From: Candidatus Ornithomonoglobus sp.
GTDB lineage: Bacteria; Bacillota; Clostridia; UBA1381
Reading direction: 5' to 3'
NCBI GenBank assembly: GCA_045539555.1
Contig: JAZQFP010000019.1
Span: 1-55,774, forward strand
DNA: 55,774 nt
Shown here: one piece after another, positions 12,424 to 29,194 of the stretch
Numbering within the stretch: position 1 is the first letter of the stretch
Layout of the letters: each line of letters starts with the position of its first letter
Notes under the pieces: model-generated
Told to the model about the DNA's origin: nothing
What the model saw: the letters and a program-made list of their open reading frames with translations, nothing else
Databases searched by the model: none
Made by a program: the position numbers and the translations under genes

Positions 12424-14109
12424 TTATTTTTTATCTGTTTTTGTCTTGGTTTTTGAAGCCACGGGCTTCTTTGCTGCTGCCTTCTTTGCAGGAGCTTTCT
12501 TTTCTTCCTTGAACGGATCCTCAACTTTCACAATTTCAGGCTCCTTGGCAACGGCTACTGCTGTTTTCTCTGACGCCTCAAAATCTTTGCGGATGGTCTC
12601 CTCAAAGTCAGGCTTCTTCTCTGCCTTTTTTGCGGGGGCTTTCTTTGGTGCAGGTTTTTGAGGTCTTTCCATGCCTGTTATCTCGCAGTACATATCAATG
12701 TATTTCTCTGCTGATACATTCCATGAATAGTCTGCCTCCATTGCCTGTTTCTGCAATTTATACCATGCATCCTTGTTATTGTAGTATACATCCATTGCCC
12801 TATAAATACATCCAAGCATTTCGTCTGCATTATAGTTTGCAAATGAGAAACCATAGCCCTCGCCTGTGTACTGGTTATAAGGAATAACTGTATCCTTTAA
12901 GCCACCCGTCTCCCGAACAATGGGTAATGTACCATACTTCATTGAGATAATCTGTGATAAACCGCAAGGCTCAAATGCTGACGGCATTAAGAATGCATCA
13001 CATGAAGCATATATCTTATGAGACATCTCATTTGAATATGTTATCCACGCCGCAAAGGTCTCGGGGTATTTCCATGAGTAATGACGGAACAAGTTCTCGT
13101 ACTTCTCATCGCCTGTGCCAAGCACTACTACCTGACATCCGCCACAGTTACATAACTCTTCAAGCTTGTATGCAATAAGGTCAAAGCCTTTCTGGTCAGT
13201 TAATCGTGATACGATACCAATAAGCATCTTGTCAGGATCTTCGGGAAGTCCTACCTCTCGCTGTAAAGCTGCCTTATTGGCTGCTTTGCCAGACTTGTAT
13301 GTTCTTGTTGTAAATTTCTTTACAATAAACTCATCCTTTGCAGGATTCCAGTCATCGTATGAGATACCATTTAATATGCCGACAACATCATTGTTTCTTG
13401 CACGCATAAGAGCATCGAGGCCCTCTCCATAATGAGGCGTCTTTATCTCTTCTGCATAAGTGTCAGATACTGTTGAAATCTTGTTAGCATAAACAAGTCC
13501 GCCTTTTAGAAGGTTGGCGTCCTCGTAATATTCAAGCTTATCAGGTGTAAAGTAATAATCGGAAATTCCCATTGCGTCCTTAATGCCCTTAAAGTCCCAA
13601 CGACCCTGGAATTTCAGGTTGTGAATTGTAACAACAGTCTTTATTCCCTGATAGAACGGGTTGTTCTGGAATGTGTCTAAAAATACAGGAATTGCACCTG
13701 TCTGCCAGTCGTTACAGTTAATTACATCAGGACGGAACCCGATTGTAGGTAGTATTGACAATGCTGCTTTTGAGAAGAATATAAACTTCTCACAATCAAG
13801 GTGGATATGATCATAGGGCTTATCGCCGCCAAAATAGAACTTATTGTCAATAAAATAATATGTTACGTTGTTATATTTAAGCTCAAAAATACCGCAGTAC
13901 TGCTTACGCCATGCCACATCAATATAGATGTTATCTATATACTTCATCTGGTCTTTGAACTTCTGGGGAATACAGTTGTATAGCGGAAGAATAACTCTCG
14001 CATCTACATTCTTCTCCACTAACGCCTGAGGAAGTGATCCTACTACGTCGCCCAGTCCGCCTGTCTTTACAAAAGGCGCACACTCGGATGTTGCAAATAA
14101 TATGTTCAT
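12424..14109 (-). CDS. glgA: Glycogen synthase (ADP-glucose type, GT5) with an ~82-aa Lys/Ala/Pro-rich C-terminal extension
   Basis: Starts MNILFATSECAPFVKTGGLGDV. Contains EPCGLSQ. The catalytic body ends near aa 479, followed by MERPQKPAPKKAPAKKAEKK...KKAPAKKAAAKKPVASKTKTKTDKK. Confidence 0.93.
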   Translation of the reverse strand: MNILFATSECAPFVKTGGLGDVVGSLPQALVEKNVDARVILPLYNCIPQKFKDQMKYIDNIYIDVAWRKQYCGIFELKYNNVTYYFIDNKFYFGGDKPYDHIHLDCEKFIFFSKAALSILPTIGFRPDVINCNDWQTGAIPVFLDTFQNNPFYQGIKTVVTIHNLKFQGRWDFKGIKDAMGISDYYFTPDKLEYYEDANLLKGGLVYANKISTVSDTYAEEIKTPHYGEGLDALMRARNNDVVGILNGISYDDWNPAKDEFIVKKFTTRTYKSGKAANKAALQREVGLPEDPDKMLIGIVSRLTDQKGFDLIAYKLEELCNCGGCQVVVLGTGDEKYENLFRHYSWKYPETFAAWITYSNEMSHKIYASCDAFLMPSAFEPCGLSQIISMKYGTLPIVRETGGLKDTVIPYNQYTGEGYGFSFANYNADEMLGCIYRAMDVYYNNKDAWYKLQKQAMEADYSWNVSAEKYIDMYCEITGMERPQKPAPKKAPAKKAEKKPDFEETIRKDFEASEKTAVAVAKEPEIVKVEDPFKEEKKAPAKKAAAKKPVASKTKTKTDKK

Positions 14110-14275
14110 AAAATCCTCCTTGCCAAATTCACCTTAGCATACATTACAACATTATAATTTTACTACTTTTAATGGTTTTTGTCAATTAAAGGGGGTAAAA
14201 ACAGTTGTTTTTTACTATTAACTCCTTTAATTTATCCTACTTATTATATACATTTTATAATAAAATAAGACTAAG

Positions 14276-14300
14276 AGAGCCTATCCACAGGACAGGCTCT
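14276..14300 (-). terminator. Hairpin downstream of glgD (possible partial terminator separating glgBCD from glgA-glgP-GH13)
   Basis: AGAGCCT...AGGCTCT stem. The T-run is strong on the plus strand and only T-rich on the minus strand. A 165-nt AT-rich spacer precedes glgA. Confidence 0.45.
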
Positions 14301-14308
14301 TTTTATTT

Positions 14309-15427
14309 TTATATAATTGTTCCCTTTGAGATTGCCAGAGGATAGCTTTCCTGGCCAAGAAGCTTTCTGCCCTTAGTGATAACTACTTCCTTGTCAAATA
14401 CAACGTGATTAACCTCAACGCCTTCTTCAACAACGCTATCCTGCATAATGATTGAGTTGCGGACAACCGCACCCTTTTCAACTCTTACACCGCGTGAAAG
14501 AATTGAATTTTCAACCGTACCCTCAATCACACAACCGTCTGAAATGAAGCTGTTCTTACATACTGCCTCATCACCGTACTTTGTGGGGCTCTGGTCCTTT
14601 GTCTTTGTGTAAATAGGACGCTCACGGTTAAAGAACTCTGCTCTTCTGTCAGCTTTTAAGAACTCCATACTTGTCTGGTAATATGACTTCATTGAGTCCA
14701 CCTTATAGAAGTGTCCCTCAAACTCGTATGCATACATTCTAAGACCATCCATTTTCTTAATGATTGCATCCTTAACAAAATCTATGTCCCCTCTTGCAGA
14801 ACACTCATCTACAACGCTTTCAAGCAATGCCTTTTCCATTACGAATATTTCAAGACAGGCATTTGTTGTCTTTGGATAGAAAGGCTGTACCTCAATATCC
14901 TTTATTGCGCCGTCTTTGTCAATGTCAAGCAAAGCATAATGTGATAAATCTGCATCCTCTGTACCGTTGATATTTTTGTAAATCATTGTAACATCGGCCT
15001 GTTTTTCAATATGCGCATCAATAACTTTATCAAAGTCAATATTATAAACCATATTTCCCAATGACAATATTACATATGTCTGTGGGCTACGGTGAATGTA
15101 ATCACGAATACCTGCTAACAAGTCAATATTGCCTTTGATTACGCCATACTGTTTGTTTTCAAGGTTAGGAGGCAATATGTTAAGTCCACTGTCTTTACGG
15201 TCCAAATCCCAGGGCTTGCCTGACTTTGTATGGTCCATAAGAGATGAATAGTTGGACTCTGTCGCAATACCTATATTTGTAATTCCTGCGTTTGCCATAT
15301 TTGACAAAACAAAATCTATAATTCTATATCTTCCGGCAATGGGAAGTGCGCTATTTGCTCTTATGTCAGTAAGAGGCGCTATCTTTTCGTCGCCGGTAAG
15401 AATAATACCCATAGTATCATTTCTCAT
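14309..15427 (-). CDS. glgD: Glucose-1-phosphate adenylyltransferase regulatory subunit GlgD
   Basis: 372 aa. GlgC paralog lacking the GGxGxRL loop (has LTDIRANSALPIAGRYRIIDFVLSNM). Sits directly after glgC, as in Firmicutes. Confidence 0.88.
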   Translation of the reverse strand: MRNDTMGIILTGDEKIAPLTDIRANSALPIAGRYRIIDFVLSNMANAGITNIGIATESNYSSLMDHTKSGKPWDLDRKDSGLNILPPNLENKQYGVIKGNIDLLAGIRDYIHRSPQTYVILSLGNMVYNIDFDKVIDAHIEKQADVTMIYKNINGTEDADLSHYALLDIDKDGAIKDIEVQPFYPKTTNACLEIFVMEKALLESVVDECSARGDIDFVKDAIIKKMDGLRMYAYEFEGHFYKVDSMKSYYQTSMEFLKADRRAEFFNRERPIYTKTKDQSPTKYGDEAVCKNSFISDGCVIEGTVENSILSRGVRVEKGAVVRNSIIMQDSVVEEGVEVNHVVFDKEVVITKGRKLLGQESYPLAISKGTII

Positions 15428-15464
15428 TTTATATTCATTCCTTTCAAGTTATAAGTCTTAATGT

Positions 15465-16670
15465 TTACGCCTGTACCATTGATTCCTTAGGTATATCTGC
15501 GCCGTCTGCTACCTTTGCGCCACCCTCAACAAGAACAATGCCGTGTGTGCAATATTCTGACTTATAGGGATTAGCATCTGTTGCATCACTTACGCCTACC
15601 TTTGCGCCTTCACCAATAATTGACTCTGTGCCAATAACTGACTTTTCAATTACTGCACCGTCGCCAATAACTGCGCCTGGCATAATTACTGAATCTTTTA
15701 CAACTGCATTCTTTCCGACCTTAACTCCGCTGAATATGACTGAATGGTCAACCTCACCGTCAATGTCGCATCCCTCGGTTATTGTTGACTGTGTTATCTT
15801 TGCATTCTCTCCCACAAAATGAGGCATCAATGCATAATTTCTTGAATAGATAACCCATTTTCTGTCCCCCAAATCAAACTTGGGCGGATTGTCGATAAGG
15901 TCCATATTCGCTTCCCACAATGACTGGATAGTACCTACATCCTTCCAGTATCCCTCAAAGCGATATGCCATCATCTTTTCGCCGTCTGCCAACATCTTGG
16001 GAATAATGTTTTTACCAAAGTCATTTGATGACTCAGGGTCTCTCTCATCATCTGTAAGATACTTTTTAAGCACCTCATACTTGAAGATATAAACACCCAT
16101 TGATGCAAGATTGCTCTTGGGGTTTGCGGGTTTCTCTTCAAATTCGATTATCTGTCCCTCTTCATTAGTGTTCATAATACCAAATCGCTTTGCTTCTTCC
16201 CAGTCAACAGGCATTACTGCGATAGTAACTGCTGCATCTGCGGCAACATGAGCTTTAAGCATCTTGCCGTAGTCCATCTTATAAATATGGTCTCCTGAAA
16301 GAATAAGAACATTCTCAGGGTTAAAACCATCAAGGAAGCTCAGGTTCTGGTAAATAGCATTAGCTGTACCCTTATACCACTCACCTGTTGCACCGCTCTG
16401 GTATGGCGGAAGAACAAACGCTCCGCCTCGTGAACGGTCAAGATCCCATGGGTTACCATTACCAATATATGTATTCAGCTCAAGAGGCTGATACTGTGTC
16501 AAAACACCTACTGTATCAATTCCTGAGTGAATGCAGTTTGATAGAGGGAAGTCAATAATTCTGTACTTTCCTCCAAAGGGTACTGCAGGTTTTGCCACAT
16601 TCTTTGTCAATGCGCCAAGTCTTGAACCCTGACCTCCGGCAAGTATCATTGCAACACATTTCTTTGCCAT
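15465..16670 (-). CDS. glgC: Glucose-1-phosphate adenylyltransferase
   Basis: [31 protein letters not shown], and a C-terminal left-handed beta-helix region. Confidence 0.95.
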
Positions 16671-16686
16671 GTTTAATCATCTCCTA

Positions 16687-18591
16687 TTATTTCTTTCTTT
16701 TTAATACTATCGCGCTGTTGCCGTCTATGGGAAGTGTAATGGTGTATTCCATATCACTAAACGGCTCTTTTTTTGCTATATAGGTCATTTTGTTTATTTT
16801 TCTGTCCCCACCAAATTCTGTTGAGTTGGAGTGAAGAACGACCTCGTATTCTCCGCCATTAGGAACCCCAAGCTTATATGTCCCACGGTCTATGGCAGTA
16901 AAGTTTGCCGCAACGACTACTATGTCCTCGGGCTTTTTACCTTTTCTGATGTAGGAAACAACTGAGTTTTCGTTGTCGGCTTCGTTTATCCACCTGAACC
17001 CTTCCCAGCTTTGTTCAAGTTCCCACAAGGCTTTATTTCCCTTATAAAACGCATTAAGCGCTTTAACATATTTGTGTAAATTCTTATGGGCATCAAGTTC
17101 TAATACATTCCATTCAAGCTGATCATCATATCGCCATTCAAGGAATTGTCCTATCTCTCCACCCATAAACATAAGTTTCTTGCCAGGCATTGTCATATAG
17201 TAAGTTAAAAATGTCTTATAGGCATTAAACTTATCCTCATAAGTTCCAAACATTTTATCAAGCAGTGATTTCTTTCCGTGAACAACCTCATCGTGAGACA
17301 AGGGCAGAATGAAATTCTCTGAAAATGCATACATCATAAGGAAAGTAAGCAACGAATGATTGTCTTTCCTGAAATACGGGTCCATTGAAACATATCTCAA
17401 CGTATCGTTCATCCAGCCCATATTCCATTTGAAATGGAAGCCCAATCCGTCATTCTCTGGTGGTGCTGTAACTAACGGCCATGCCGTAGATTCCTCTGCA
17501 ACCATTATAAATCCTGGTTTTTCCGTTCCCATTGTGATGTTTATGCGTTTTAGAAGCTCAACCGCCTCTAAGTTGCCATTACCGCCGTACTTATTAGCGA
17601 CCCATTCACCATCATTTCGGGAATAGTCTCGGTATAACATTGACGATACCGCATCGACACGAAGTCCGTCGATATGGTACTCCTCCGCCCAGAAATACGC
17701 CGATGACATAAGGAAGGATATTACCTCACCCTTGGCAAAGTCAAACACCATCGTTCCCCAGTCTTTATGCTCTCCCTCTCGCCAGTCTGCATATTCATAA
17801 CACGGCGTTCCGTCAAACATTCTGAGTCCATGTCCGTCTCGGGGGAAATGAGCAGGTACCCAGTCCATAATAACACTTATTCCTGCACTGTGGCATTTAT
17901 CAATGAGTTTTTTAAGTTGTTCAGGTGTTCCGTATCGGGATGTCGCCGCGAAATAACCTGTTACCTGATATCCCCATGAGCCGTCAAACGGAAACTCCGT
18001 AAGGGGCATAAGCTCTAAATGAGTATAACCCATTTCCACAAGGTAAGGAACAAGCTCATCCGCTACCTCTTCATAATTGTAGAAGCTACCGTCCTCATGA
18101 ATTCTCCACGAGCCAATGTTACACTCATAAATATTCATAGGAGAATGGATATTGTCCTTTTTGCTCCTGCTTTCCATCCATTTCTTATCAGTCCATTTAT
18201 AAGGCGCTTCACCGTATACCACCGATGCCGTTCCTGGTCGAAGCTCTGCGTGTCTTGCATAGGGGTCTGCTCTCATAAATGTTTCGCCATCGGGTGCAGT
18301 TATTGCATATTTGTAATAATCACCACGGTTAAAGTCTGAGAAAAAGCCTATCCAGATACCCGTTTGGCCAAAGGGCATAAGGTCCTTTCCCTCGCCTGTC
18401 CATTCGTTTTTATCACAAGCTACTTTTACTGATCTCGCATTAGGTGCCCACACGGCAAATCTCCATCCGTCATAGCCATCAAAATGCGCTTTATGACACC
18501 CCAGGAATTCGTACGATCTGAAATTGTTGCCTGAGTTAAACAAGTATGCTTGAAAATCGCTTACCCCGTACAACTCCTTAGTGTTGTCCAT
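16687..18591 (-). CDS. glgB: 1,4-alpha-glucan branching enzyme
   Basis: GH13 branching-enzyme motifs (DWVPAHF, GLRVDAVSSM, AEESTAWP, SHDEVVHGK). ATG 18591 lies 8 nt behind GAGGTG. The 19 extra N-terminal codons in the track ORF (to 18648) lack an RBS. Confidence 0.93.
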   Translation of the reverse strand: MDNTKELYGVSDFQAYLFNSGNNFRSYEFLGCHKAHFDGYDGWRFAVWAPNARSVKVACDKNEWTGEGKDLMPFGQTGIWIGFFSDFNRGDYYKYAITAPDGETFMRADPYARHAELRPGTASVVYGEAPYKWTDKKWMESRSKKDNIHSPMNIYECNIGSWRIHEDGSFYNYEEVADELVPYLVEMGYTHLELMPLTEFPFDGSWGYQVTGYFAATSRYGTPEQLKKLIDKCHSAGISVIMDWVPAHFPRDGHGLRMFDGTPCYEYADWREGEHKDWGTMVFDFAKGEVISFLMSSAYFWAEEYHIDGLRVDAVSSMLYRDYSRNDGEWVANKYGGNGNLEAVELLKRINITMGTEKPGFIMVAEESTAWPLVTAPPENDGLGFHFKWNMGWMNDTLRYVSMDPYFRKDNHSLLTFLMMYAFSENFILPLSHDEVVHGKKSLLDKMFGTYEDKFNAYKTFLTYYMTMPGKKLMFMGGEIGQFLEWRYDDQLEWNVLELDAHKNLHKYVKALNAFYKGNKALWELEQSWEGFRWINEADNENSVVSYIRKGKKPEDIVVVAANFTAIDRGTYKLGVPNGGEYEVVLHSNSTEFGGDRKINKMTYIAKKEPFSDMEYTITLPIDGNSAIVLKRKK

Positions 18592-18763
18592 CCGTTTTTC
18601 ACCTCTTTTGTTGCTTTGAATACTTAATATAGAGATAACAGTAACCACTCTATATTATAATTTGTTATCCATCATTATATCACATTTAAGTTTGTGAGTA
18701 AATACCATAATTGAATAAAAATATACCGTTTTTTTATACATTTTTACCAAAAATAACTTTTTA

Positions 18764-18792: not shown

Positions 18793-18825
18793 TGTTTGTG
18801 AAAAACAATGGGAGAGGTAATTAAA

Positions 18826-19995
18826 ATGGACTTTTCAAAGGTTAAAGAATTTATGGACTTTATGGCAGAAGAGCACACAGTCGGAAACTCAATCTGCATA
18901 TATAAAGATAATGCCAAAGTTTTTGAATATTCATCAGGATATAGCGATATGGAAAACCAGACTCCTCTTACAGGGAATGAAATGTTTTATATATACTCCT
19001 GTTCAAAGGTTGCAACAGTAACGGCAATGCTCCAACTTGTTGAGTCTGGAAAAATACGCCTTTCTGACCCTGTGTCAATGTATATTCCTGAATATGAAAC
19101 AATGTATATAAAGAAAGATAACGGGGAGATTGTAAAGGCTACAACTCCCATTACCATTGAACATCTTTTCTCAATGACTGCTGGACTTACATATAATTTC
19201 AGCGACGAAGCATTTGAAAAGGCAAAAACGCTTACCGACGGGCATTTTGATACCCTTACAACAATAAAATGCCTTGCAGAGACACCCCTTATATATAACC
19301 CTGGCGAAGGATGGGGGTATAGTCTGGCTCACGATGTTCTTGCAGCAGTAATCGAAGTTGTTACGGGTAAAAAGTTTAGTCAGTATATGGAAGAAAATAT
19401 TTTTGCTCCCCTTGAAATCGAGGCAGGATACGACTGTGATAAATACAAAGATGACCTTGCCCAATTATACGAATTTATTCCTCTTAGCGGCAAAATAGAA
19501 GATTTAATAGAAGCACAGAAGAAAAATGATTCTATTGAGGGCAACTTCGTAAATATGAACAAGAAAAACTGGCTTGTCTATGGCGACAGATACGAAAGCG
19601 GAGGCGCAGGAATTATAACAAAAGTTAACAGCTACGCAAAACTGGCTTCTGCCCTTGCCAATAATGGTGTTGGTCCGAACGGCGCAAGAATTCTTAAATC
19701 TGATACCATCAAGCTTATGTGTACAAACAGGTTTCCTTATGAAGATCTGGGTTGCTATGGTTGGACACACCTTGCAGGTTACGGTTACGGTTTAGGCGTC
19801 CGTGTTCATTTAGATAATGAAAAATCGGGCTCTCTAAGTAACATAGGCGAATTTGGCTGGTGTGGCGCGGCAGGGGCTGCATTAATCGCAGATCCCAAGG
19901 CTAAACTTGGTGTATTCTACGCCCAGCATACCCTTAACCCCCGCGAAAACTATTATTTCCCTCGCCTTAAAGATGCAATCTATAAATGTATATAA
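18826..19995 (+). CDS. Serine hydrolase, beta-lactamase/transpeptidase fold (class C / EstB-like)
   Basis: S-x-x-K motif in YSCSKVATV. No signal peptide. ATG 18826 follows GGAGAGG; the track start is 18808. Confidence 0.75.
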   Translation: MDFSKVKEFMDFMAEEHTVGNSICIYKDNAKVFEYSSGYSDMENQTPLTGNEMFYIYSCSKVATVTAMLQLVESGKIRLSDPVSMYIPEYETMYIKKDNGEIVKATTPITIEHLFSMTAGLTYNFSDEAFEKAKTLTDGHFDTLTTIKCLAETPLIYNPGEGWGYSLAHDVLAAVIEVVTGKKFSQYMEENIFAPLEIEAGYDCDKYKDDLAQLYEFIPLSGKIEDLIEAQKKNDSIEGNFVNMNKKNWLVYGDRYESGGAGIITKVNSYAKLASALANNGVGPNGARILKSDTIKLMCTNRFPYEDLGCYGWTHLAGYGYGLGVRVHLDNEKSGSLSNIGEFGWCGAAGAALIADPKAKLGVFYAQHTLNPRENYYFPRLKDAIYKCI

Positions 19996-19996
19996 T

Positions 19997-20031
19997 AAAA
20001 GGCTATCGCTTTTGCGATAGCCTTTATTTTT
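19997..20031. terminator. Bidirectional terminator between convergent genes
   Basis: AAAAGGCTATCGC-TTTT-GCGATAGCCTTTATTTTT: a 9-bp perfect stem. Confidence 0.85.
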
Positions 20032-20800
20032 AGTCCTCAAAAGGGAATATGTTACTTAGAAAATCTTTTGCTTTATTTCCTGCCTTTGCGCTGGCTTTTG
20101 TTATTGTATTTAACTTTGAACGGATAGGTGATGCACCCTCTTCTTCCTCGTCCTCAAATTCAATACCTGACATTGCACGGGTAGGGGCATAGGCGCGTCT
20201 TGATGCTCTTTCATCCTCCGCCTTTATTTCATTCATAGCCGCACGGCGTGTGTCCCATCTGCCAAGAATTTCTCTTTCCTCATCGTTTATATCAACTGTG
20301 GGTCTGTTTTCGGGCATTTCAATGCTTTCTTCATTACGGGCATAATTCTCATTTGTGTTTACAACCTCTGTTACAGGTTCATTTATGTCCTTTAATGTTG
20401 ATGCAAATTTCTCTTCTATGTCCTTTCTCAAAGCTCTTATTTCGGATGAGCTCTGGGCACTTCTACGGGCAAGACGATAGAAGCGATTTCCTACCCAACA
20501 TGCAACAAAGAAGTTAACCACAACTGATGCTAAGAACCAGAAGAAGCCACCCCACTTTGACAAATACTTGCTTGATGTGCCTGTTGCCTGTGTTGTTACG
20601 CTTGTAGGCTCTGATGCACCGCCTGTTGTTGATGTTGTATTGTCTTCATTTGATGATGCTGTTACTGTATCTGTTACTGATGTATCAGCTCCCGGGCCTG
20701 AACGAAACTCATCTGTTGCAAAAACAGTTGCTGCACTCATTGTTACCACAGTAGATACTGCACATAATGTAATTATAAATTTTCTCATAATGCTTTTCAT
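20030..20800 (-). CDS. Hypothetical single-pass membrane protein (signal peptide, Thr/Ser-rich ectodomain, TM helix, charged cytoplasmic tail)
   Basis: ATG 20800 lies behind GAAAGGGA, 16 nt after the stop of the 713-aa gene. The sequence runs MKSIMRKFIITLCAVSTVVTMSAATVFA, then TDTVTASSNEDNTTSTTGGASEPTSVTTQATGTSS, then the TM helix GGFFWFLASVVVNFFVACWVG, then about 130 aa of E/R/K-rich tail. No recognisable family. Confidence 0.6.
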   Translation of the reverse strand: MKSIMRKFIITLCAVSTVVTMSAATVFATDEFRSGPGADTSVTDTVTASSNEDNTTSTTGGASEPTSVTTQATGTSSKYLSKWGGFFWFLASVVVNFFVACWVGNRFYRLARRSAQSSSEIRALRKDIEEKFASTLKDINEPVTEVVNTNENYARNEESIEMPENRPTVDINDEEREILGRWDTRRAAMNEIKAEDERASRRAYAPTRAMSGIEFEDEEEEGASPIRSKLNTITKASAKAGNKAKDFLSNIFPFED

Positions 20801-20816
20801 ATCATTATTCCCTTTC

Positions 20817-22958
20817 TCAATCTCTTTCATCTTTGAAAACCTTGCGAAGTTCTGCCTTGATGTCAAGTCTGCTAAGTTTAATCTTGTTTGCTTCATATAT
20901 ACGTATATATGCTATCATCTTTTTATCATCACGCTTTGCTTTCATTGCACCAATAAGGAACCAGTTCCAGAAGCTTTCGGGAACAGTCTCCATATTTACC
21001 ATAATGTCATGATAATGTCCCGGTGATTCTATAATCTCTATTGCAAGTTTTGCAATCATATAATGATAACACTGAGGCTCTTTTCTCTTTAATTCAAGAA
21101 TAAGTCTCTTTGTCTTTTCTGCAAGACGCTTTGCCTCACGCTGATCACCGTATGCCCCCTGCCACATATAGAATGTGCTAAGCAATCTTGAAATCATATA
21201 TGGAGATGAATTGTATTCCATATCCGCCATAACTTCTCGCTTAATGGCCTCGTATGTCCCACGCTTAAAAGGCTCGTAGCCTACCCTTGTAAGCATTCTT
21301 TTGATTTTCTTTGCATCCTCTTCCGCCTCATGTGGAAGTTTCTTTCTACGGGCAATATTAACTCCGTAGTTTTCCCATTTAACGTCATCGTGTTCTAATA
21401 TGTATCTGATACAGCCCACTGATAAATGCTTGTCCTCTGTTGATGCTTCAATGTATGCGACAAGCTCGTGAACTTCCTCGGGAGTCCATCCCTTTGGAAC
21501 GGAGAACATATTATTGCCATAGCCCGTTATAATTCCACACATGGCAAGTTCTGTCAAAGCTGAAAGGTATTTCTTCTTTCTACCCATCATATGTGCCCAG
21601 CTGTCAAATACACCGCTGTGCTTTAATCTGGCAATAAAGTTAAGAATTAAAATCTTGTTCTTATCACCCATTGTGTCAAAGTTATCACAAATACAATCCA
21701 TATAGGATGTAAGGTTTTCAAGCATTACCTCTATCTGCGCCTTTGTTCCAACGCCAAAAATGCTCTCTATGTCGTAGTTCTCACCCTTACATAGCTTTTC
21801 TACACATTCTGCAACATACATCTCTGTAAGCTTTTTTGCCTCGTCTTCAAAAAGGTCAATGTTGTCATACATTACCTTGGTAACCTCAAAACGAACCTCA
21901 GCCATATCCTCACTATCAAGCATAGCAAAAAGTTCCCTTGCGCGAATGGCAAACGCCTCGTCTCCCGCTGAACGCTTAAACTTCAAAAGCTTACCACCCA
22001 TACCACTGAATGTAATATTCTGTGTCAATGAGAACCAGTCAAGGTATGCGCTAATTGATGAAAGCTTGTATTTTGCATATTCTTTTCTTATCTCATCTAC
22101 TGTGAACTTAAACAGGCTTGACTCGGAAACCGCTGAGAAATCAATGGCATTAAAGTCAATGTATATGCAATTTTCTCTTGCCTCAATAGCTTCTCGGGTA
22201 ATGTTGTTTCTTCCGTCTACGGTTCCGTGGAACACTATCTTGTCCTGCTTATCCGATGGCAAATATACATTATGTGTAGAAATGCCTGTGTTAAGAGATA
22301 CGTCTCTTGGAAGCATCCATTTAAGTGCTACAAGATACTTATCCGTATCCTCCGAAGATGCTGTGGAAATACAAATATTTTTCAGGTTTTCAGAGGTAAG
22401 CATTGTAACTGCATGGTTTACAATATATGTCAGCTCTTTCTTATGCTCGTCTATAAAAGCCTTGATTTCTTCCTCTGTGTCCTTAGGACGCTGAGGATCA
22501 ATAAGGGTTGGCATATATCTTACAAGGGGAGTATTATATTCCTCTTTTGTAAGGTATGTTCTGAACAATTCTGAGCCGTAATACTGCTCAGGGAAAAAGT
22601 CATCCCCGAACTCATCAAATACCAGTGCATGAGCAAAAACATTGCCCTCTTCTCCGTTTATATCAACCCCTGCATACACCGTCTGTATTGCCGCCATTCT
22701 TCCGTCTGAAAGACGCAAAGTGCGGAACGCTTTCGGGAACGCCTGTCCCACTGACGGGTCGCCAAATTCATGAGAATATTCTATGGTATTGTCCTTTGGC
22801 AGTCTGTAACTGCAAAATCTCATCAGTTCTGCAATATTTTCCTTAGTAATTCCCTGTGAGCAGGAATATACCCGCTGACCCGCCTGATTTTCCAAACCTA
22901 AATCTGGGTCTGCAATGCTATACTGCACCGAAGTGTATATCATCTGGTATACCTTCAT
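20817..22958 (-). CDS. Hypothetical 713-aa cytoplasmic protein; N-terminal domain possibly GAP1-N2-like, remainder alpha-helical
   Basis: Long intact ORF with a GGAAGGAG RBS, 26 nt after the ABC exporter stop. N-terminus MKVYQMIYTSVQ...GLENQAGQRVYSCSQGIT. I found no P-loop, HExxH, CxxC or other catalytic motif. The family assignment is from memory only. Confidence 0.55.
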   Translation of the reverse strand: MKVYQMIYTSVQYSIADPDLGLENQAGQRVYSCSQGITKENIAELMRFCSYRLPKDNTIEYSHEFGDPSVGQAFPKAFRTLRLSDGRMAAIQTVYAGVDINGEEGNVFAHALVFDEFGDDFFPEQYYGSELFRTYLTKEEYNTPLVRYMPTLIDPQRPKDTEEEIKAFIDEHKKELTYIVNHAVTMLTSENLKNICISTASSEDTDKYLVALKWMLPRDVSLNTGISTHNVYLPSDKQDKIVFHGTVDGRNNITREAIEARENCIYIDFNAIDFSAVSESSLFKFTVDEIRKEYAKYKLSSISAYLDWFSLTQNITFSGMGGKLLKFKRSAGDEAFAIRARELFAMLDSEDMAEVRFEVTKVMYDNIDLFEDEAKKLTEMYVAECVEKLCKGENYDIESIFGVGTKAQIEVMLENLTSYMDCICDNFDTMGDKNKILILNFIARLKHSGVFDSWAHMMGRKKKYLSALTELAMCGIITGYGNNMFSVPKGWTPEEVHELVAYIEASTEDKHLSVGCIRYILEHDDVKWENYGVNIARRKKLPHEAEEDAKKIKRMLTRVGYEPFKRGTYEAIKREVMADMEYNSSPYMISRLLSTFYMWQGAYGDQREAKRLAEKTKRLILELKRKEPQCYHYMIAKLAIEIIESPGHYHDIMVNMETVPESFWNWFLIGAMKAKRDDKKMIAYIRIYEANKIKLSRLDIKAELRKVFKDERD

Positions 22959-22984: not shown

Positions 22985-24826
22985 TTATTGGAGTTCCTTG
23001 ATTCCTGTGTGTAACTCGTAATATCTGCCCTTTAATTCAAGTAACTCATCGTGTGTTCCTCGCTCGATTATTTCGCCGTTTTCCAGTACCATTATTGCGT
23101 TGGCATTACGAATGGTTGATAATCTGTGAGCAATGACAAAAGTTGTTCTGTTTTCCATCAGCGCATCCATACCACGATTAATGTTTTGCTCCGTTTTCGT
23201 GTCAACTGACGAGGTCGCCTCATCAAGTATCAATATGGGTGCTTTTGATAATGCGGCACGGGCAATGTTAAGAAGCTGTCGCTGTCCCTGAGACAGATTT
23301 GCTCCATCGCCGTCAAGAACGGTATCATACCCTTCTGGCATATTTTTTATAAAACTATGCGCACATGAGGTATGTGCAGCCGCAATTACCTCTTCATCCG
23401 TTGCATCAAGTCTTCCATAACGGATGTTTTCCATAACCGTGCCAGTAAACAAATGGGTATCCTGTAATACCATTGCTATGTTTTCCCTTAAACTGTTACG
23501 GTCAATGTCTTTAATATCAATACCATCAATGGTTATCTTTCCATTATCCACATCATAAAACCTTGTAATAAGATTAGTTATTGTGGTTTTTCCCGCACCT
23601 GTTGAGCCAACTAAGGCTATCTTTTGTCCTGGATGGGCGTACATGGAAATATTTTTAAGTATTGTTTTATCGGGGTTGTAGCCAAATGTAACATTCTCAA
23701 TTACAACATCTCCCCGAATATTTTCCAACTTAACCTTGTTGTTATCATCTGCCGACTCGGGCTTCTCATCCATTACGGCAAAAACCCTCTCGGCACCAGC
23801 CAAAGCTGACATAACAACATTTATCTGGTTTGAAATCTCGTTTATGGGTCTTGAAAACTGTCTTGAATAGTTTACAAAAACCGTCAGGCCTCCAATATCC
23901 AAAGCTGCAAAATTTTCAAGCCCGATTTTTCCTATTCTTGTGAACAACGTTAAAGTTGAGCCAACAAACGCCGTTACTGTATAACTTACCTGAGACATTG
24001 CATTCATGCACGGGCCCATTATTCCACCAAGGAAATTGGCCTTAATCTGAATATCTTTCAAGGTATTGTTCATTGAATTAAAGTCTTTTTTGACCTTATC
24101 TTCATGGTTAAAGACTTTAACAACTTTCTGTCCGCTTACGGTTTCTTCAATAAAACCGTTAACTGCACCAAGCTGTGCCTGTTGTTTGCCAAAGTACTTT
24201 CTTGTATGCTTAGCAATAGTACCTGATACCAACGCCATAAGTGGTGTCAGGGTCAGGGTTACCAATGCAAGTGGTACATTTGTAACAAACATAAGAACTA
24301 TTGAACCAATAAGAGTCAATATCCCCGACAGCATATGCAATATTGTTGAATCGAACATCTGCCCGATATTATCAATATCATTAGTAAATCGGCTCATTAT
24401 GTCGCCAGCACTGTTTGTATCATAATACTTTACGCTAAGGCTTTGTAACTTGTCAAACAAACTTGCACGAATGCGCTTAATGGCATCCTGTGAGACTTGT
24501 ATCATTGTTCTCGCCTGAATAAAGGAAGCAATAATACCAATTAAATAAATAAGTCCCATTATGACAAGACCTATAATAAGCTTTTTTAGCTTTATATCCC
24601 CTGGCTCGTCAAGAGCAAGATTTCCCATAATGGGTCTTAGCATATATGTTCCGCCAAGGTTTGCAGCGGTGCTTATAACAACACAAATTACGGCAAAAAG
24701 TACTTTATATTTATCTCTGCCAATATATGAGAATAGTCTGTTTATAGCACCCGTTAAGTTTTTAGGCTTTGCCTGTTTTTGAAATCTTGCATTTCTGTTA
24801 TTGTTGTGTCCCATCTGTGGAGGCAT
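22985..24826 (-). CDS. ABC exporter, fused permease/ATPase (heterodimer partner 2)
   Basis: Six-TM domain plus an NBD with GSTGAGKTT (Walker A), LSQGQRQ (signature) and ILILDEATS (Walker B). ATG 24826 lies 1 nt after the upstream stop and behind GGAGGTG. The 44-codon N-terminal extension in the track (to 24958) overlaps the upstream gene. Confidence 0.9.
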   Translation of the reverse strand: MPPQMGHNNNRNARFQKQAKPKNLTGAINRLFSYIGRDKYKVLFAVICVVISTAANLGGTYMLRPIMGNLALDEPGDIKLKKLIIGLVIMGLIYLIGIIASFIQARTMIQVSQDAIKRIRASLFDKLQSLSVKYYDTNSAGDIMSRFTNDIDNIGQMFDSTILHMLSGILTLIGSIVLMFVTNVPLALVTLTLTPLMALVSGTIAKHTRKYFGKQQAQLGAVNGFIEETVSGQKVVKVFNHEDKVKKDFNSMNNTLKDIQIKANFLGGIMGPCMNAMSQVSYTVTAFVGSTLTLFTRIGKIGLENFAALDIGGLTVFVNYSRQFSRPINEISNQINVVMSALAGAERVFAVMDEKPESADDNNKVKLENIRGDVVIENVTFGYNPDKTILKNISMYAHPGQKIALVGSTGAGKTTITNLITRFYDVDNGKITIDGIDIKDIDRNSLRENIAMVLQDTHLFTGTVMENIRYGRLDATDEEVIAAAHTSCAHSFIKNMPEGYDTVLDGDGANLSQGQRQLLNIARAALSKAPILILDEATSSVDTKTEQNINRGMDALMENRTTFVIAHRLSTIRNANAIMVLENGEIIERGTHDELLELKGRYYELHTGIKELQ

Positions 24827-24827
24827 A

Positions 24828-26561
24828 TTACGACACCTCCCTTTCCATCTGGGAATAGTATATATCCTTGTACTCTTCACACTCGTTGATAAGTGTATTA
24901 TGAGTACCCTCGCCAACAATTCTACCATCATCAAGAACGATAATGTTGTCAGCATCAATCACGGATGAAATTCTCTGTGCAATGATTATCTTTGTTGTAT
25001 CCTTTAATTCTCCATAAAGCATATTACGGATATTTGCCTCTGTTGCAGTATCAACCGCACTTGTTGAGTCATCAAGGATAAGAATTTTCGGGTTTTTAAG
25101 CAATGCTCTTGCAATACACAATCTCTGCTTCTGGCCACCTGAAACATTTGAGCCGCCGCGGCCAAGCTCTGTATTATACCCATCTGCAAAGGCTTCTATA
25201 AATTTATCTGCCTGTGCTGCACTTGTTACCTTTTTAATCGCAGACATATCCGCGTTCTCATCGCCCCATCTGAGATTATCCTCAATGGTTCCTGAAAACA
25301 AAACGTTTTTCTGCAATACCATACCAACGCCGTCTCGTAAATTCTTTAAGCTATATTCCTTTACATTAACGCCGTCAACTAATACATCGCCCTCGGTAGT
25401 ATCATACAGTCTCGGAATAAGCTGAACAAGGGAGCTTTTTCCTGAACCTGTAACACCTACAATGCCAAGGGTTGTTCCCCCTGACACCTTAAAGGATATG
25501 TTCTCTAAAACATTCTCCTCTCTGTTCTTATGATACTTAAAGGATACATTTCTAAACTCAATGTCTCCCTTTTCTACCTTTCTGTCTTTTTCTGTGGCAT
25601 ATATATCTGTTAAATCTATCTCAGTATCCAGCACCTCTCCCACACGACGGAATGACATTATTGCTCTTGAAGAGTTTATTATCATCATTGAAACCATCAT
25701 AAGTGAGCTTAAAATCTGTGTGATGTACTGAACAATAGAGTTTAGAGCACCTACCTCAATACCACCTGATATTACAATCTGTCCACCATTTACAAGGGTA
25801 ACAATAGTTGCAATATTCATAGCAAGTGTCATTATTGGCATAGTGCAGATAATGATTTTAAGAGCACTGTATGTTGCATCTCTTAAATCGGAGTTTGCCT
25901 TATCAAACTTCTTTATTTCATGGTCCTGTCTTACAAAAGACTTTATAACCCTTACATTAGTTATATTCTCTTGTGTATGAGAGTTAAGGTTGTCAAGGCT
26001 CTTCTGCATTCTGCCAAATCTGGGCATTGCCGTTCTCATAATAAAGAATATAGTCGTTGCTAAAAGTGGCAACATTACAATAAGGATGGATGCAAGGCTC
26101 TTGTTAATGGAAAACGCCATTATAACGCCACCAATAAGCATACCTGGCGAACGCACCGCCATAATAAGCATCATTCGGGTAATGTTCATTATCTGGGTAA
26201 TATCGTTAGTTAATCGGGTTATTATTGAGCCTGTGGAGAAACTGTCAATGTTCTTAAAGGAAAATTCCTGAACCTTGTTAAATACTGCGCCTCTTAAATC
26301 GGTACTGAAACTTACAGCGGCCTTTATTGAAAAATAGTGTCCTCCGATTCCGCCGCAAATCATTATAGCTATACAGCTAAGCATCTTTAACGCCTGTGCT
26401 ATAATAAAACTCTCTCCTGCACCGCCGATAATTCCCGTATCAATCATTTCGCCCATAAGTCTTGGCAAAACAATTTCACCCGCTACCTCTGTGAGCATCA
26501 GGAGCGGACCTAATATGAAATATAGGGTGTAGGGTTTTATATAACGGAGATATTTTCTCAC
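24828..26561 (-). CDS. ABC exporter, fused permease/ATPase (heterodimer partner 1)
   Basis: GVTGSGKSS, VSGGQKQR, ILILDDSTS. GTG start behind AGAGGGA. Confidence 0.9.
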   Translation of the reverse strand: MRKYLRYIKPYTLYFILGPLLMLTEVAGEIVLPRLMGEMIDTGIIGGAGESFIIAQALKMLSCIAIMICGGIGGHYFSIKAAVSFSTDLRGAVFNKVQEFSFKNIDSFSTGSIITRLTNDITQIMNITRMMLIMAVRSPGMLIGGVIMAFSINKSLASILIVMLPLLATTIFFIMRTAMPRFGRMQKSLDNLNSHTQENITNVRVIKSFVRQDHEIKKFDKANSDLRDATYSALKIIICTMPIMTLAMNIATIVTLVNGGQIVISGGIEVGALNSIVQYITQILSSLMMVSMMIINSSRAIMSFRRVGEVLDTEIDLTDIYATEKDRKVEKGDIEFRNVSFKYHKNREENVLENISFKVSGGTTLGIVGVTGSGKSSLVQLIPRLYDTTEGDVLVDGVNVKEYSLKNLRDGVGMVLQKNVLFSGTIEDNLRWGDENADMSAIKKVTSAAQADKFIEAFADGYNTELGRGGSNVSGGQKQRLCIARALLKNPKILILDDSTSAVDTATEANIRNMLYGELKDTTKIIIAQRISSVIDADNIIVLDDGRIVGEGTHNTLINECEEYKDIYYSQMEREVS

Positions 26562-26611: not shown

Positions 26612-27787
26612 TTACTCTTTAATATACTTTTTAACAAATCTTGCAATTCTCTTTAATGCCTCTTCGATACTTTCAACGGAATATGCATATGAGCATCGGA
26701 TAAAGCCCTCACCGCAATCACCGAATGCAGTACCCGGAACAACCGCAACTTTTTCCTCTTCAAGAAGACGATTACAAAATTCTTCACTTGTCATTCCGGT
26801 TTTTGCAATACATGGGAAAACGTAAAACGCGCCATAAGGCTCAAAACATGATAGCCCCATATTGCGAAAACCGTCAACAATAATACGACGGCGGCGGTTA
26901 TACTCATCGCACATAGTTTGCACATCGTTGTCGCATGAGCGAAGCGCCTCTATTGCCGCGTACTGACTGGTTGTAGGTGATGACATAATTCCATACTGAT
27001 GAATTTTTGTCATTAGCTTTATCAGTCTCTCGGGGCCTACTGCATAACCAAGTCTCCAACCTGTCATGGCAAAAGCCTTTGAGAAACCGTTTACTACAAC
27101 TGTTCTTTCATACATTCCATCTATCTTTGAGAATGGAACATGTTTTTCATCGCTGTATCTTAACTCGCCGTAAATCTCATCTGATAAAACAAGTATATCA
27201 GTATCGCGAATTACATCGGCAATAGCCTCTAAGTCTGCCTTTGACATAACCGCACCTGTGGGGTTATTGGGGAAAGGCAGGATAAGAAGCTTAGTTTTAT
27301 CTGTTATCTTCTCTTTTAACTGCTCAGGTGTAAGGCGGAAGTTGTCCTCCTCCTTTGTTTCAATTATAACGGGTACGCCACCTGCCATAATTGTAAGGGG
27401 TTTATAGCACACAAAACTTGGCTCAGGTATAAGCACCTCATCCCCAGGGTTTACAACGGCTCTTATCATGGCATCAATAGCCTCAGAGCCACCAACTGTT
27501 ACAAGCACCTGTGTTGCGGCGTCATACTTAACGCCATACTTACGCTTGTTATATGTACAAATCTCCTCACGAAGTTCTATTAAGCCGCTGTTTGCGGTGT
27601 AGTATGTCTGTCCTTTTTCAAGACTCGCAATACCTGCCTCGCGAATTGCCCAGGGAGTAACAAAGTCAGGCTCACCTACGCCCAGAGATATTGCTCCCTT
27701 CATTGTTCCTACTACATCAAAAAATTTTCTTATTCCTGACGGGGGTAATGCGTCCACCGTGGAATTTATCAGTTTATCTAAATTCAT
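26612..27787 (-). CDS. Class I/II PLP-dependent aminotransferase (AspC/PatA-like)
   Basis: 391 aa. NPTGAVM and the PLP-lysine region NGFSKAFAMTGWRLGY. The start overlaps the Lrp stop (ATGA). Confidence 0.85.
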   Translation of the reverse strand: MNLDKLINSTVDALPPSGIRKFFDVVGTMKGAISLGVGEPDFVTPWAIREAGIASLEKGQTYYTANSGLIELREEICTYNKRKYGVKYDAATQVLVTVGGSEAIDAMIRAVVNPGDEVLIPEPSFVCYKPLTIMAGGVPVIIETKEEDNFRLTPEQLKEKITDKTKLLILPFPNNPTGAVMSKADLEAIADVIRDTDILVLSDEIYGELRYSDEKHVPFSKIDGMYERTVVVNGFSKAFAMTGWRLGYAVGPERLIKLMTKIHQYGIMSSPTTSQYAAIEALRSCDNDVQTMCDEYNRRRRIIVDGFRNMGLSCFEPYGAFYVFPCIAKTGMTSEEFCNRLLEEEKVAVVPGTAFGDCGEGFIRCSYAYSVESIEEALKRIARFVKKYIKE

Positions 27788-28272
27788 AAAGTAATCACCT
27801 GTCTCGAATCTTTCTTGTCGTCTTTGAATATAATACCCTCTGCCTTGTATTTTTTAAGCATAAAATGAGTAGCGGTTGATACAACCGACTCCATGGGTGC
27901 AAGTTTCTGCGCAACAAAAAGTGCAACTTCTTTCATACTTGTTCCCTCTATCATAACTGATAGGTCATATGCTCCTGACATCAGGTACACGGCTCGTACC
28001 TGAGGATATTTATAAATACGGGCGGCTACTTTATCAAAGCCCTCTCCACGCTGTGGAGTAACTTTAAGGTCAATAAGCGCCATTACCACGTCTCTGTCTG
28101 TTTTGTCCCAGTTAACAATGGTTTTGTAACCTGCGATTATATGATTATCTTCAAGCTCTTTTAGCGTCTTTGACACTTCCTCTTCGGTTTTTCCAAGCTT
28201 TTTTGAGATTTTTGCCACATCTATACGGCCCTGCTCTTCATCAAGAATTTTCAATAAATCTTCCATTCTCAA
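27784..28272 (-). CDS. Lrp/AsnC family transcriptional regulator
   Basis: 162 aa. N-terminal wHTH and a C-terminal RAM/AsnC-type ligand domain (VMALIDLKVTP...VRAVYLMSGAYDLSVMIEG). Confidence 0.85.
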   Translation of the reverse strand: MRMEDLLKILDEEQGRIDVAKISKKLGKTEEEVSKTLKELEDNHIIAGYKTIVNWDKTDRDVVMALIDLKVTPQRGEGFDKVAARIYKYPQVRAVYLMSGAYDLSVMIEGTSMKEVALFVAQKLAPMESVVSTATHFMLKKYKAEGIIFKDDKKDSRQVITL

Positions 28273-28367: not shown

Positions 28368-28406
28368 GTAAAAAAATAAAAAAATCAGCGGAAAATTTTC
28401 CGCCGA
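28368..28406 (-). terminator. Intrinsic terminator after dapB
   Basis: Minus strand reads TCGGCGGAAAATTTTCCGCTGA followed by TTTTTTTATTTTTTT. Confidence 0.8.
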
Positions 28407-28412
28407 TTTCTA

Positions 28413-29174
28413 TTATACTGTTGCTTCTACCAACATGTTCATATCATATAGTCCCTGGGGTTTGTTTTTCATAAACTTAGCCGCCTTAATAGCGCCTACC
28501 GCAAAGACTTCTTTTGACGCAGCATGGTGGGATAATTCAATTACTTCATCATTACCTGCAAAGATAATTTCATGGTCGCCAACTATTGTTCCGCCGCGAA
28601 CTGCACTTATTCCAATCTCTGTTGTCTTTCTCTTGCGTCGTACACTATGACGGTCAAACACATATTCCGCGGGATATGACAAAGTCTCGTCTATTGCATC
28701 GGCTATTGTCAATGCAGTACCGCTTGGTGCATCAATTTTCTTATTATGATGTCTCTCAACTATCTCTATGTCAAAATTGCCCTCTAAAAGTTTTGCCGCC
28801 TGTTTTGCAAGAGATATTAATAGATTAATTCCAAGGCTCATATTGGCTGAAAAAAACACAGGAATTTCTTTTGATGCCGCTATAAACGTTTCCTTATCCT
28901 CCACAGAATAGCCTGTTGTTGCAAGAATTACGGGAGTCTTTGTTCTCTTACAATAGTTAAGAATACTGCCAAGACATGAGGGGTGTGAGAAGTCAATTAC
29001 TACATCTGCCTCACCACTGAATTCCTCAATAGATTTAACAACAGGATAGGAATTATTTATCTCTGTGTTTATATCAACACCACAAACAATTTCCGCATCG
29101 CTATCTTCTGCAACAAGACGGGATATAACCTGACCCATCTTACCGTTACAGCCGTTCATGATTATTCTTGTCAT
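28413..29174 (-). CDS. dapB: 4-hydroxy-tetrahydrodipicolinate reductase
   Basis: 253 aa. MNGCNGKMGQ NAD(P) loop and ERHHNKKIDAPSGTA. Confidence 0.93.
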   Translation of the reverse strand: MTRIIMNGCNGKMGQVISRLVAEDSDAEIVCGVDINTEINNSYPVVKSIEEFSGEADVVIDFSHPSCLGSILNYCKRTKTPVILATTGYSVEDKETFIAASKEIPVFFSANMSLGINLLISLAKQAAKLLEGNFDIEIVERHHNKKIDAPSGTALTIADAIDETLSYPAEYVFDRHSVRRKRKTTEIGISAVRGGTIVGDHEIIFAGNDEVIELSHHAASKEVFAVGAIKAAKFMKNKPQGLYDMNMLVEATV

Positions 29175-29194
29175 GATGTAAAATTCCTTTCTTA

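Follow-up and report, generated by a model that had tools for sequence, protein, structure and literature searches.

GAP1 proteins of the N2 type are known from a single computational survey, which placed them in DO-GTPase-centric conflict systems (Kaur, Burroughs, Iyer and Aravind, eLife 2020; PMC7159879); the other literature we found on DO-GTPases and GAP1-N2 mentions them in passing, and the family is described but purely computational. In that survey, the GAP1 gene follows a DO-GTPase gene or is fused to it, canonical GAP1 genes lie directly 3′ of paired, often membrane-anchored P-loop GTPases, and the DO-GTPase–GAP1 pair is presented as an inseparable core. N2-type systems also carry an FNIII-repeat protein and variable tubulin, HSP70 or kinase modules, and membrane proximity with a transmembrane (TM)-containing component is typical of them (PMC7159879). 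Here, we describe a GAP1-like gene and its membrane partner in a stretch of 55,774 nucleotides (nt) from Candidatus Ornithomonoglobus sp. (Clostridia; assembly GCA_045539555.1, contig JAZQFP010000019.1), hereafter the window. On the minus strand, a gene for a 713-amino-acid (aa) protein (20817..22958) is followed by a gene for a 256-aa single-pass membrane protein (20030..20800), and both lie downstream of the genes for two ATP-binding cassette (ABC) half-transporters. An original prediction, made by reading the letters of the window without database searches, had proposed the pair as an undescribed module appended to the ABC exporter; its observation is confirmed and its interpretation is partly supported.

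Our best explanation, which we hold with a probability of roughly 45%, is that the pair is a membrane-tethered module derived from the GAP1 component of GAP1-N2/DO-GTPase systems and domesticated without a linked DO-GTPase, with the partner serving as anchor and the exporter as the likeliest client. The argument starts from GAP1 homology, the absence of a neighboring GTPase, loss of the canonical arginine, strict co-occurrence and co-variation of the two genes, and purifying selection. A fixed-locus GAP1 lineage with no neighboring GTPase, without this arginine and with a new membrane partner is undescribed in the literature searched.

The GAP1-like protein and its altered loop

The resemblance of the N-terminus to GAP1-N2, proposed originally, was borne out by Pfam. 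GAP1-N2 (PF20013) was the one significant match of the 713-aa protein, spanning residues 4–140 (22539..22949, minus strand) and profile positions 3–130 of 139 (E 1.2e-18; 67.9 bits against a cut-off of 24), and all 20 aligned family members matched it as well. This domain holds the YTS and GN-F-H motifs and a loop at residues 99–106 in which Glu103 stands for the canonical Arg. A GAP1-M-like α/β middle domain follows (residues ~160–270; 22149..22481, minus strand), with the motifs ISTYNVYLPSDKQ and FHGT--NNIT; it was matched by hhalign, and a direct match to GAP1-M (PF20014) was obtained for five of the 20 family members (best E 1.5e-5), the window protein not among them, which points to a GAP1-M feature that is present at the profile level in divergent form. 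Aligned with hhalign against 22 canonical GAP1 proteins, the family matched at 99.9% probability (E 1e-33) over ~390 columns, with residues 1–404 of the window protein corresponding to positions 1–418 of the canonical profile (~890 in total). By these profile comparisons, the homology of the 713-aa protein to canonical GAP1 extends from the N2 domain through the M domain into the first part of the helical region. For residues 405–713, neither hhalign nor a profile search, as the test for a GAP1-C domain, detected a counterpart in canonical GAP1. The all-α C-terminal region predicted by AlphaFold2 (residues ~280–713; 20820..22121, minus strand) is accordingly lineage-specific from residue 405 onward, and its GHYHE and SFWNWFLIG motifs are conserved within the family. 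As to the description of the pair as an undescribed module, the partner has no annotation, and the large protein is only partly new, its residues 1–404 being homologous to a described family.

A homologue search with the 713-aa protein returned 208 homologues, and among the 120 listed nearly all were ~710–720 aa long. When a profile of 20 homologues was run against 1.8 billion representative proteins, about eight full-length clusters of 695–727 aa were recovered, and the next matches were proteins of ~840–900 aa aligned over positions 1–230 only. Ten proteins from this profile search were scanned with Pfam, eight longer or outlying matches (712–1596 aa) and two full-length clusters, and all eight of the former carried both GAP1-N2 and GAP1-M. 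A search of NCBIfam with both proteins returned nothing useful. In PADLOC (PADLOC-DB 2.0), the 713-aa protein was unmatched and the partner matched only DzbA (E 0.011, 13 bits). When PDB sequences were searched with profiles of the GAP1-like family, of its N-terminal 290 aa and of canonical GAP1, only noise or designed helical repeats came back. The 713-aa protein contains no Walker A motif, in agreement with the earlier reading that it lacks a P-loop, and none of these searches matched a characterized housekeeping family.

The AlphaFold2 model of the full-length protein reached a mean predicted local distance difference test (pLDDT) score of 85.5. Residues 1–145 are predicted to follow a longin-like β-β-α-β-β-β-α-α order, succeeded by an α/β domain at 160–270 and all-α structure at 280–713. 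In Foldseek searches with this model, FLCN ranked first and the remaining matches were mostly weak, non-specific HEAT/ARM solenoids; because these swamped the search, the N-terminal 290 aa were modelled separately (mean pLDDT 83.6; predicted TM-score (pTM) 0.86). Against the PDB, this shorter model gave no significant match (E 8e-3 to 7e-2, TM-score ≤0.34), and its ranking was FLCN–FNIP2 (E 8e-3), Acinetobacter baylyi TagF, C9orf72–SMCR8 and Pseudomonas aeruginosa TagF. The predicted order of elements is compatible with a longin-DENN module and with TagF, and we treat this fold resemblance as a lead, not a result. Residue 229 of the window protein (about nt 22272–22274) is His; the usual residue at this position of the motif ISTYNVY is Tyr, found in 119 of 126 family members and in 92 of the 106 canonical GAP1 proteins.

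For a comparison of residues, 126 family members were aligned with 106 canonical GAP1 N-termini, the latter defining the signature D-Y-S-G-R-x-G-N. The loop Arg is present in 104 of the 106 canonical proteins; at the aligned position 103, all 126 family members have Glu, Gln, Asp or His. The loop Tyr, found in 102 of the 106, is Ile, Phe, Val or Tyr in the family. Nearly all other canonical signature residues are retained, namely Q5, Y8, T9, S10, G21, G27, Y51, P54, F74 and P75, and further along L83, G86, G97, D99, G105, N106, H110, P123, E140 and P217. The DYSGRxGN loop is thus the place where this family departs from the canonical signature.

The absence of a nearby GTPase, noted at the outset, was upheld by a Walker-A scan of the window and of the 10-kb neighborhoods of 74 loci. 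In the window, the two ABC halves were the only Walker-A proteins, and no DO-GTPase was found; two other matches to the Walker-A regular expression we take, from their N-termini, to be aspartate-semialdehyde dehydrogenase and argininosuccinate lyase. Across the 74 further loci, no GTPase family keeps a constant place next to the pair within 10 kb. Besides the ABC halves, the P-loop proteins that recurred were an AAA-type ATPase in 20 loci and a PduV/EutP-type GTPase-like protein in 13, the latter encoded ~3 kb downstream of the pair in one subclade only; a fourth recurrent match, the AsnC regulator, reflects a chance motif. None of these fits the DO-GTPase models. No fn3 family appeared among the precomputed Pfam matches of the genes from the AsnC regulator to the partner in the loci examined, and no variable effector or accessory genes differing between close relatives were found, gene order being constant in about 75 species. 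By comparison, the genes around the nearest canonical relatives (P0147 and P0198) form GrpE-HSP70-(vWA)-ZnR/FN3 contexts, and the gene just before GAP1 encodes a zinc-ribbon P-loop protein, in keeping with the published survey (PMC7159879).

In Pfam, these upstream zinc-ribbon P-loop genes come closest to DO-GTPase2 and DO-GTPase1, for the most part with scores around or under the threshold. At two canonical loci, L085 (8626–9834) and L087 (8864–9991), the genes scored 21.2 and 27.5 bits against a DO-GTPase2 threshold of 27. With scores of this kind, Pfam annotation may under-call DO-GTPases, which matters for genome-wide tests of their absence.

The membrane partner and the conserved block

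The partner shows the four-part order proposed earlier, although two of the lengths differ: its extracytoplasmic segment has 54 aa rather than ~70 and its tail 152 aa rather than ~130. A hydrophobic, signal-like segment (residues ~1–29) precedes a hypervariable Ser/Thr-rich extracytoplasmic segment (residues 30–83, 43% Ser/Thr; 20552..20713, minus strand), followed by the TM helix (residues 84–104) with a juxtamembrane GNRFY motif (together 20477..20551) and a cytoplasmic tail that is 38% charged (residues 105–256; 20033..20476). Across 70 sequences, conservation is limited to the TM helix, its flanks and the tail, and the ectodomain has zero conserved columns. Within the helix, W88, F89, the polar Asn96 and S100 are conserved, position 100 being Ser in most members. 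The tail carries EIRALRxDIEEKF (120–132), W182, YxPxR (204–208) and a C-terminal KAKxxLxxIFPF[D/K]E (243–256), positions that are 70–100% conserved between variable linkers. In one locus, L059, the partner homologue (12149–12604) is 151 aa long and begins at the TM helix, without signal peptide or ectodomain, while retaining RFYKL and the C-terminal KAKEILGDIFPFDE. A lipoprotein lipobox was considered for the partner and rejected, since ITLC has Leu at −1 and the Cys is unconserved across the clade.

The partner family is wholly unannotated. Pfam gave no match for it, and a search of 5.8 billion proteins with the TM helix plus tail returned 134 matches; among the 120 listed, lengths were 216–314 aa and none had a Pfam domain. 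The few matches that carry a source name all come from the Ornithomonoglobus/Hominilimicola clade. A hidden Markov model of the partner found no homologue among all open reading frames (ORFs) of three canonical GAP1 loci, which suggests that the partner does not derive from those systems.

In all 71 informative loci, the large gene is followed by a partner ORF or, where the contig ends, by the beginning of one, 0–74 nt downstream or overlapping the large gene, and hence the pair travels together wherever this could be read; a single-pass, TM-containing component always adjoins the GAP1-like gene. Both ORFs are intact and full length in more than 70 species, with a large protein of 695–727 aa. 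Measured against the closest relative, the large gene has a ratio of nonsynonymous to synonymous substitution rates (dN/dS) of about 0.03 and the partner one of about 0.06, rough values given that dS is near saturation there and saturated beyond it. Both proteins diverge quickly: across 51 species, the mean protein distance is 0.21 for the aminotransferase, 0.24 for the AsnC regulator and 0.35 for the ABC halves of the same block, and 0.70 for the GAP1-like protein and 1.18 for the partner. Co-variation in these species was assessed by partial Mantel (mirror-tree) correlation, controlling for the aminotransferase and the AsnC regulator; where a range is given, its second figure was obtained with a further control (the ABC halves, the other ABC half or the GAP1-like protein). 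The GAP1-like protein and the partner reached 0.71–0.75, as tight as the two ABC halves, a known heterodimer that served as positive control (0.76–0.79), and while such correlations can be inflated if both proteins are fast and track phylogeny better than the slow controls, the contrast between pairs stays informative. The strict co-occurrence and this behavior, which resembles that of an obligate pair, support the idea that the partner is a membrane anchor or receptor for the large protein.

One genome per species was scanned for the distribution of the pair. All 74 loci found come from metagenome-assembled genomes or isolates of Clostridia, one locus per assembly, labelled Ornithomonoglobus, Hominilimicola, Oscillospiraceae or 'Clostridia bacterium'. 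In about 75 species of one clade (Ornithomonoglobus/Hominilimicola), the pair is present once and in conserved synteny, within a recurring block in the order AsnC regulator, aminotransferase, (pyrG), ABC1, ABC2, GAP1-like gene and partner, an order seen also in more divergent lineages at 35–36% identity. The only genes whose presence varies across these species are pyrG and the ABC pair. ABC2 is the gene immediately before the GAP1-like gene in 73 of 74 informative loci (76 of 78 when L080, L081, L083 and L084 are added), with a median spacer of 39 nt over 75 loci. In one species (L043, 7201–8128), a repeat-rich, structured insert of 922 nt (predicted folding energy −265 kcal/mol) separates the two genes, and several other loci have hairpin-rich spacers of 100–200 nt at the same site.

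In the window, ABC2 (22985..24826, minus strand) and ABC1 (24828..26561, minus strand) were identified by Pfam as half-transporters and by PDB sequence as TM288-like (3qf4_B, E 6.9e-158) and TM287-like (3qf4_A, E 7.5e-132), respectively. The Walker B motif of ABC1, LILDDS, is degenerate, with Asp for the catalytic Glu, and that of ABC2, LDEAT, is the consensus, which is the degenerate/consensus asymmetry of TM287/288-type exporters. The ORF table and the sequence agree with the originally described gene pair in its positions, spacers and ribosome-binding sites (RBSs): 26 nt lie between the ABC2 stop (22985) and the ATG of the 713-aa gene, with GGAAGGAG as RBS, and 16 nt between the two genes of the pair, with GAGAAAGGG preceding the partner ATG. 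This ATG, at 20800, is backed by the N-termini of homologues; a 288-aa version starting from 20896 was rejected because it overlaps the upstream gene and its extension is unconserved. A terminator had been placed at 19997–20031, and a bidirectional intrinsic-terminator hairpin is indeed present, at 19998..20025 (12 pairs, including six G-C, and a T-rich tail on either strand), ending the unit. No terminator was found in the window between ABC2 and the GAP1-like gene, and co-transcription of the ABC genes with the pair is plausible, fitting the short spacers. The proposed four-gene transcript may nonetheless be too short: the next strong minus-strand terminator upstream lies at 28380–28411, ahead of the AsnC-type gene, and the possible transcript therefore comprises six genes. 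Together, the AsnC-type regulator (27784–28272, minus strand) and the class I/II aminotransferase (26612–27787, minus strand) stand at the head of the syntenic block and possibly of the transcript.

The terminator at 19998–20025 is common to the pair and to a convergent PF00144 (beta-lactamase family) gene (18808–19995, plus strand; E 3.7e-49), relatives of which occur near the locus, at varying distance, in L006, L009, L010 and L026. Upstream of the AsnC–aminotransferase block, the region has housekeeping character throughout; directly upstream of the 28380–28411 terminator are genes that, from their translations, we take to be dapB-, dapA- and asd-like (28413–31212, minus strand). Elsewhere in the window, a 561-aa protein (12424–14109, minus strand), presumably glycogen-synthase-like as judged by eye from its N-terminal MNILFATSECAPFVKTGGLGDV, has an unusual Lys/Ala/Pro/Glu-rich C-terminal tail of ~90 aa (PQKPAPKKAPAKKAEKK...KTKTKTDKK); its gene is housed in an apparent glgB-glgC-glgD-glgA cluster at 12424–18648.

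Explanations for the pair

Under the tethered-module explanation, the 256-aa protein would cross the membrane once, with a dispensable Ser/Thr-rich segment outside and a 150-aa, largely unstructured charged tail in the cytoplasm. The tail motifs GNRFY, EIRALRxDIEEKF and KAKxxLxxIFPF[D/K]E would dock onto the 713-aa protein, probably at its lineage-specific C-terminal helical region, and this docking would keep the GAP1 N2–M core at the inner membrane face. The 713-aa protein would then be a non-enzymatic adaptor or regulator, whose likeliest, though not obligatory, client in most lineages would be the co-transcribed TM287/288-type exporter. Several points weigh against this explanation. We infer the physical interaction, the assignment of motifs to sites, the non-enzymatic role and the client; the invariant polar residues Y8, T9, N106, H110 and GHYHE may leave room for unrecognized catalysis; a DO-GTPase may be encoded elsewhere in these genomes, beyond the window and the 10-kb flanks searched; and the possible inflation of mirror-tree correlations, given above, belongs here as well. 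For an exporter client in particular, the partial correlations of the GAP1-like protein with ABC2 (0.25–0.40) and with ABC1 (0.02–0.33) are weak. Moreover, two lineages lack ABC genes between the aminotransferase and the GAP1-like gene: in L007 (77% identity), 38 nt separate the two and the GAP1-like gene has its usual RBS, and in L080 (33% identity), the stop of the former gene overlaps the start of the latter. Mis-assembly was rejected as the source of the L007 arrangement on the grounds of the retained RBS and the like arrangement of the distant L080. With two independent ABC-less lineages, the link of the pair to the exporter is likely but not obligatory. ABC2 is the usual upstream neighbor, but the original wording, that the pair is appended to an ABC exporter, is overstated: the whole block is syntenic in a single clade, these two lineages lack the ABC genes at this place and co-variation is weak. 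In a further locus, L081 (the lineage of P0126; 7824–9633), ABC2 was called as two ORFs (462 + 149 aa) with a gap of ~370 nt before the GAP1-like gene; here the exporter gene is frameshifted or the assembly is at fault, and the arrangement, if real, would be a third case of the pair outliving an intact exporter.

The same evidence bears on the possibility that the two proteins serve the TM287/288-type exporter itself as accessory or regulatory subunits, which we consider unlikely, though still worth serious attention. The GAP1-like protein would dock on the nucleotide-binding domain (NBD) dimer in the place of a DO-GTPase dimer, and polar residues of the partner's TM helix would contact the transmembrane domains of the exporter. 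Such an arrangement would account for ABC2 lying directly upstream in 73 of 74 informative loci, plus L081, L083 and L084, across a short spacer (median 39 nt) that in the window holds no terminator, for the conserved Asn and Ser of the TM helix and for the partial correlation of 0.25–0.40 with ABC2. The ABC halves are also the only P-loop NTPases in the window, and the GAP1-like gene sits as canonical GAP1 genes do 3′ of paired P-loop GTPases (PMC7159879). On the other side, two independent lineages, 77% and 33% identical to the window protein, have the order aminotransferase–GAP1–partner without intervening ABC genes, and one of them keeps the GAP1 RBS; the correlation with ABC1 drops to 0.02 once ABC2 is controlled; and because the block also includes the unrelated AsnC regulator, aminotransferase and pyrG, adjacency may be inherited rather than functional. 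To our knowledge, exporters of the TM287/288 type work without accessory proteins, and we know of no accessory subunits described for them. A related idea, and by our estimate a long shot, is that the N2–M core is a bacterial counterpart of longin-DENN modules in which the invariant Arg of canonical GAP1 is the arginine finger for the DO-GTPase, and that the Arg-less, tethered scaffold here engages the exporter NBDs instead. If true, it would be the first dedicated cytoplasmic regulator of TM287/288-type exporters and an instance of NTPase-partner swapping.

The descent of the large protein from a family predicted for conflict systems also raises the possibility of a minimal GAP1 anti-phage or anti-invader system, in which the ectodomain senses an envelope insult and the GTPase, the effector or both are encoded elsewhere. 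A hypervariable ectodomain, evolution 2–5 times faster than that of the neighbors (0.70 and 1.18 against 0.35 for the ABC halves and 0.21 for the aminotransferase) and the membrane proximity typical of GAP1-N2 systems would fit, yet we regard this as rather improbable: the position is fixed and single-copy, gene content is constant over about 75 species with no variable effector, FNIII protein or EAD, PADLOC gave no match, the canonical invariant Arg is lost, dN/dS is low and the L059 partner has no ectodomain at all. More doubtful again is that the GAP1-like protein regulates a housekeeping or otherwise unlinked GTPase, with the membrane partner localizing that regulation. The N2–M core does retain Q5, Y8, T9, G27, Y51, G86, D99, G105, N106 and H110, and weak fold matches to longin/DENN regulators (FLCN–FNIP2, E 8e-3; C9orf72–SMCR8) point the same way; these matches, however, are far below significance (TM-score ≤0.34), the most conserved charged residue of the canonical domain has gone from Arg to Glu or Gln, and no GTPase family keeps a fixed position beside the pair in any neighborhood. 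The idea that the ORFs are decaying remnants or chance ORFs without function could draw on the lack, beyond GAP1-N2 and a weak GAP1-M, of any match in Pfam, NCBIfam, PADLOC or PDB sequences; it is effectively refuted by conservation, with both ORFs intact in more than 70 species, a conserved length of 695–727 aa, dN/dS of 0.03–0.06, dozens of invariant columns and a confident AlphaFold2 model (mean pLDDT 85.5).

If the tethered-module explanation is right, the locus would be an example of a conflict-system component that has settled at a fixed place in the chromosomes of a clade of abundant gut Clostridia, and the lineage a natural separation-of-function variant, useful for dissecting the roles of the parts of GAP1. 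The pair would likewise be a candidate for the first accessory module of TM287/288-type exporters. The clade has cultured relatives, Hominilimicola fabiformis and strain MD329 (the source of locus L036), in which these predictions are testable.

Comparison with described systems

Set beside canonical GAP1, the large protein has an N2 domain above the Pfam threshold, homologous M and first helical parts and most of the N2 signature residues, and like N2-type systems the pair presents a membrane-proximal context with a TM-containing partner. Unlike those systems, it has no DO-GTPase nearby, no FNIII-repeat protein, no tubulin, HSP70 or kinase theme and no variable effectors. In the DYSGRxGN loop of the family, the invariant Arg is gone and the Tyr is no longer fixed, the protein has 713 aa as against ~840–900 aa with an unrelated C-terminal 300 aa, the gene occupies a fixed, vertically inherited chromosomal site beside housekeeping genes, and the partner is a new single-pass protein seen only in this clade.

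Comparison with TM287/288 (PDB 3qf4) concerns the two upstream genes, which are clear homologues with the same Walker B asymmetry; the pair itself is outside the exporter fold and separable from the exporter in two lineages. With the eukaryotic longin-DENN regulators FLCN–FNIP2 and C9orf72–SMCR8, which act on GTPases, the large protein shares a predicted order of longin-like, α/β and all-α parts, and FLCN–FNIP2 was the top Foldseek match for both models. The matches to these regulators are below significance (E 8e-3 to 6e-2, TM-score ≤0.22), and no sequence link was found. In longin-type GTPase-activating protein (GAP) complexes, the catalytic Arg resides in the longin domain (PMC12290439), which may be compared with the invariant Arg in a β-hairpin loop of canonical GAP1-N2; in the family described here, this Arg is absent and no GTPase partner was identified.

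A close parallel in working principle may be TagF–TagZ of the Acinetobacter type VI secretion system (bioRxiv 10.64898/2025.12.08.692957; PDB 9t0n), in which the single-pass protein TagZ brings cytosolic TagF to the membrane by way of a short conserved peptide on its own cytosolic side, TagF has two domains, α+β then α/β, and the periplasmic domain of TagZ is variable and dispensable (bioRxiv 10.64898/2025.12.08.692957). There are differences: A. baylyi TagF was a weak, second-ranked Foldseek match (E 0.04, TM-score 0.31–0.34 over 267 aligned columns) with no sequence similarity, the TagZ motif is N-terminal and about 26 aa long where the partner has a C-terminal tail of 150 aa with several motifs, type VI secretion genes are absent at this Gram-positive locus, and the large protein has an extra helical region of 430 aa. 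What the two would have in common is a cytosolic two-domain regulator paired with a single-pass protein that bears a conserved cytosolic motif, together with an extracytoplasmic part that, as in TagZ, where it is also unstructured, is variable and dispensable; by this precedent, the partner could anchor the GAP1-like protein through its tail motifs much as TagZ recruits TagF.

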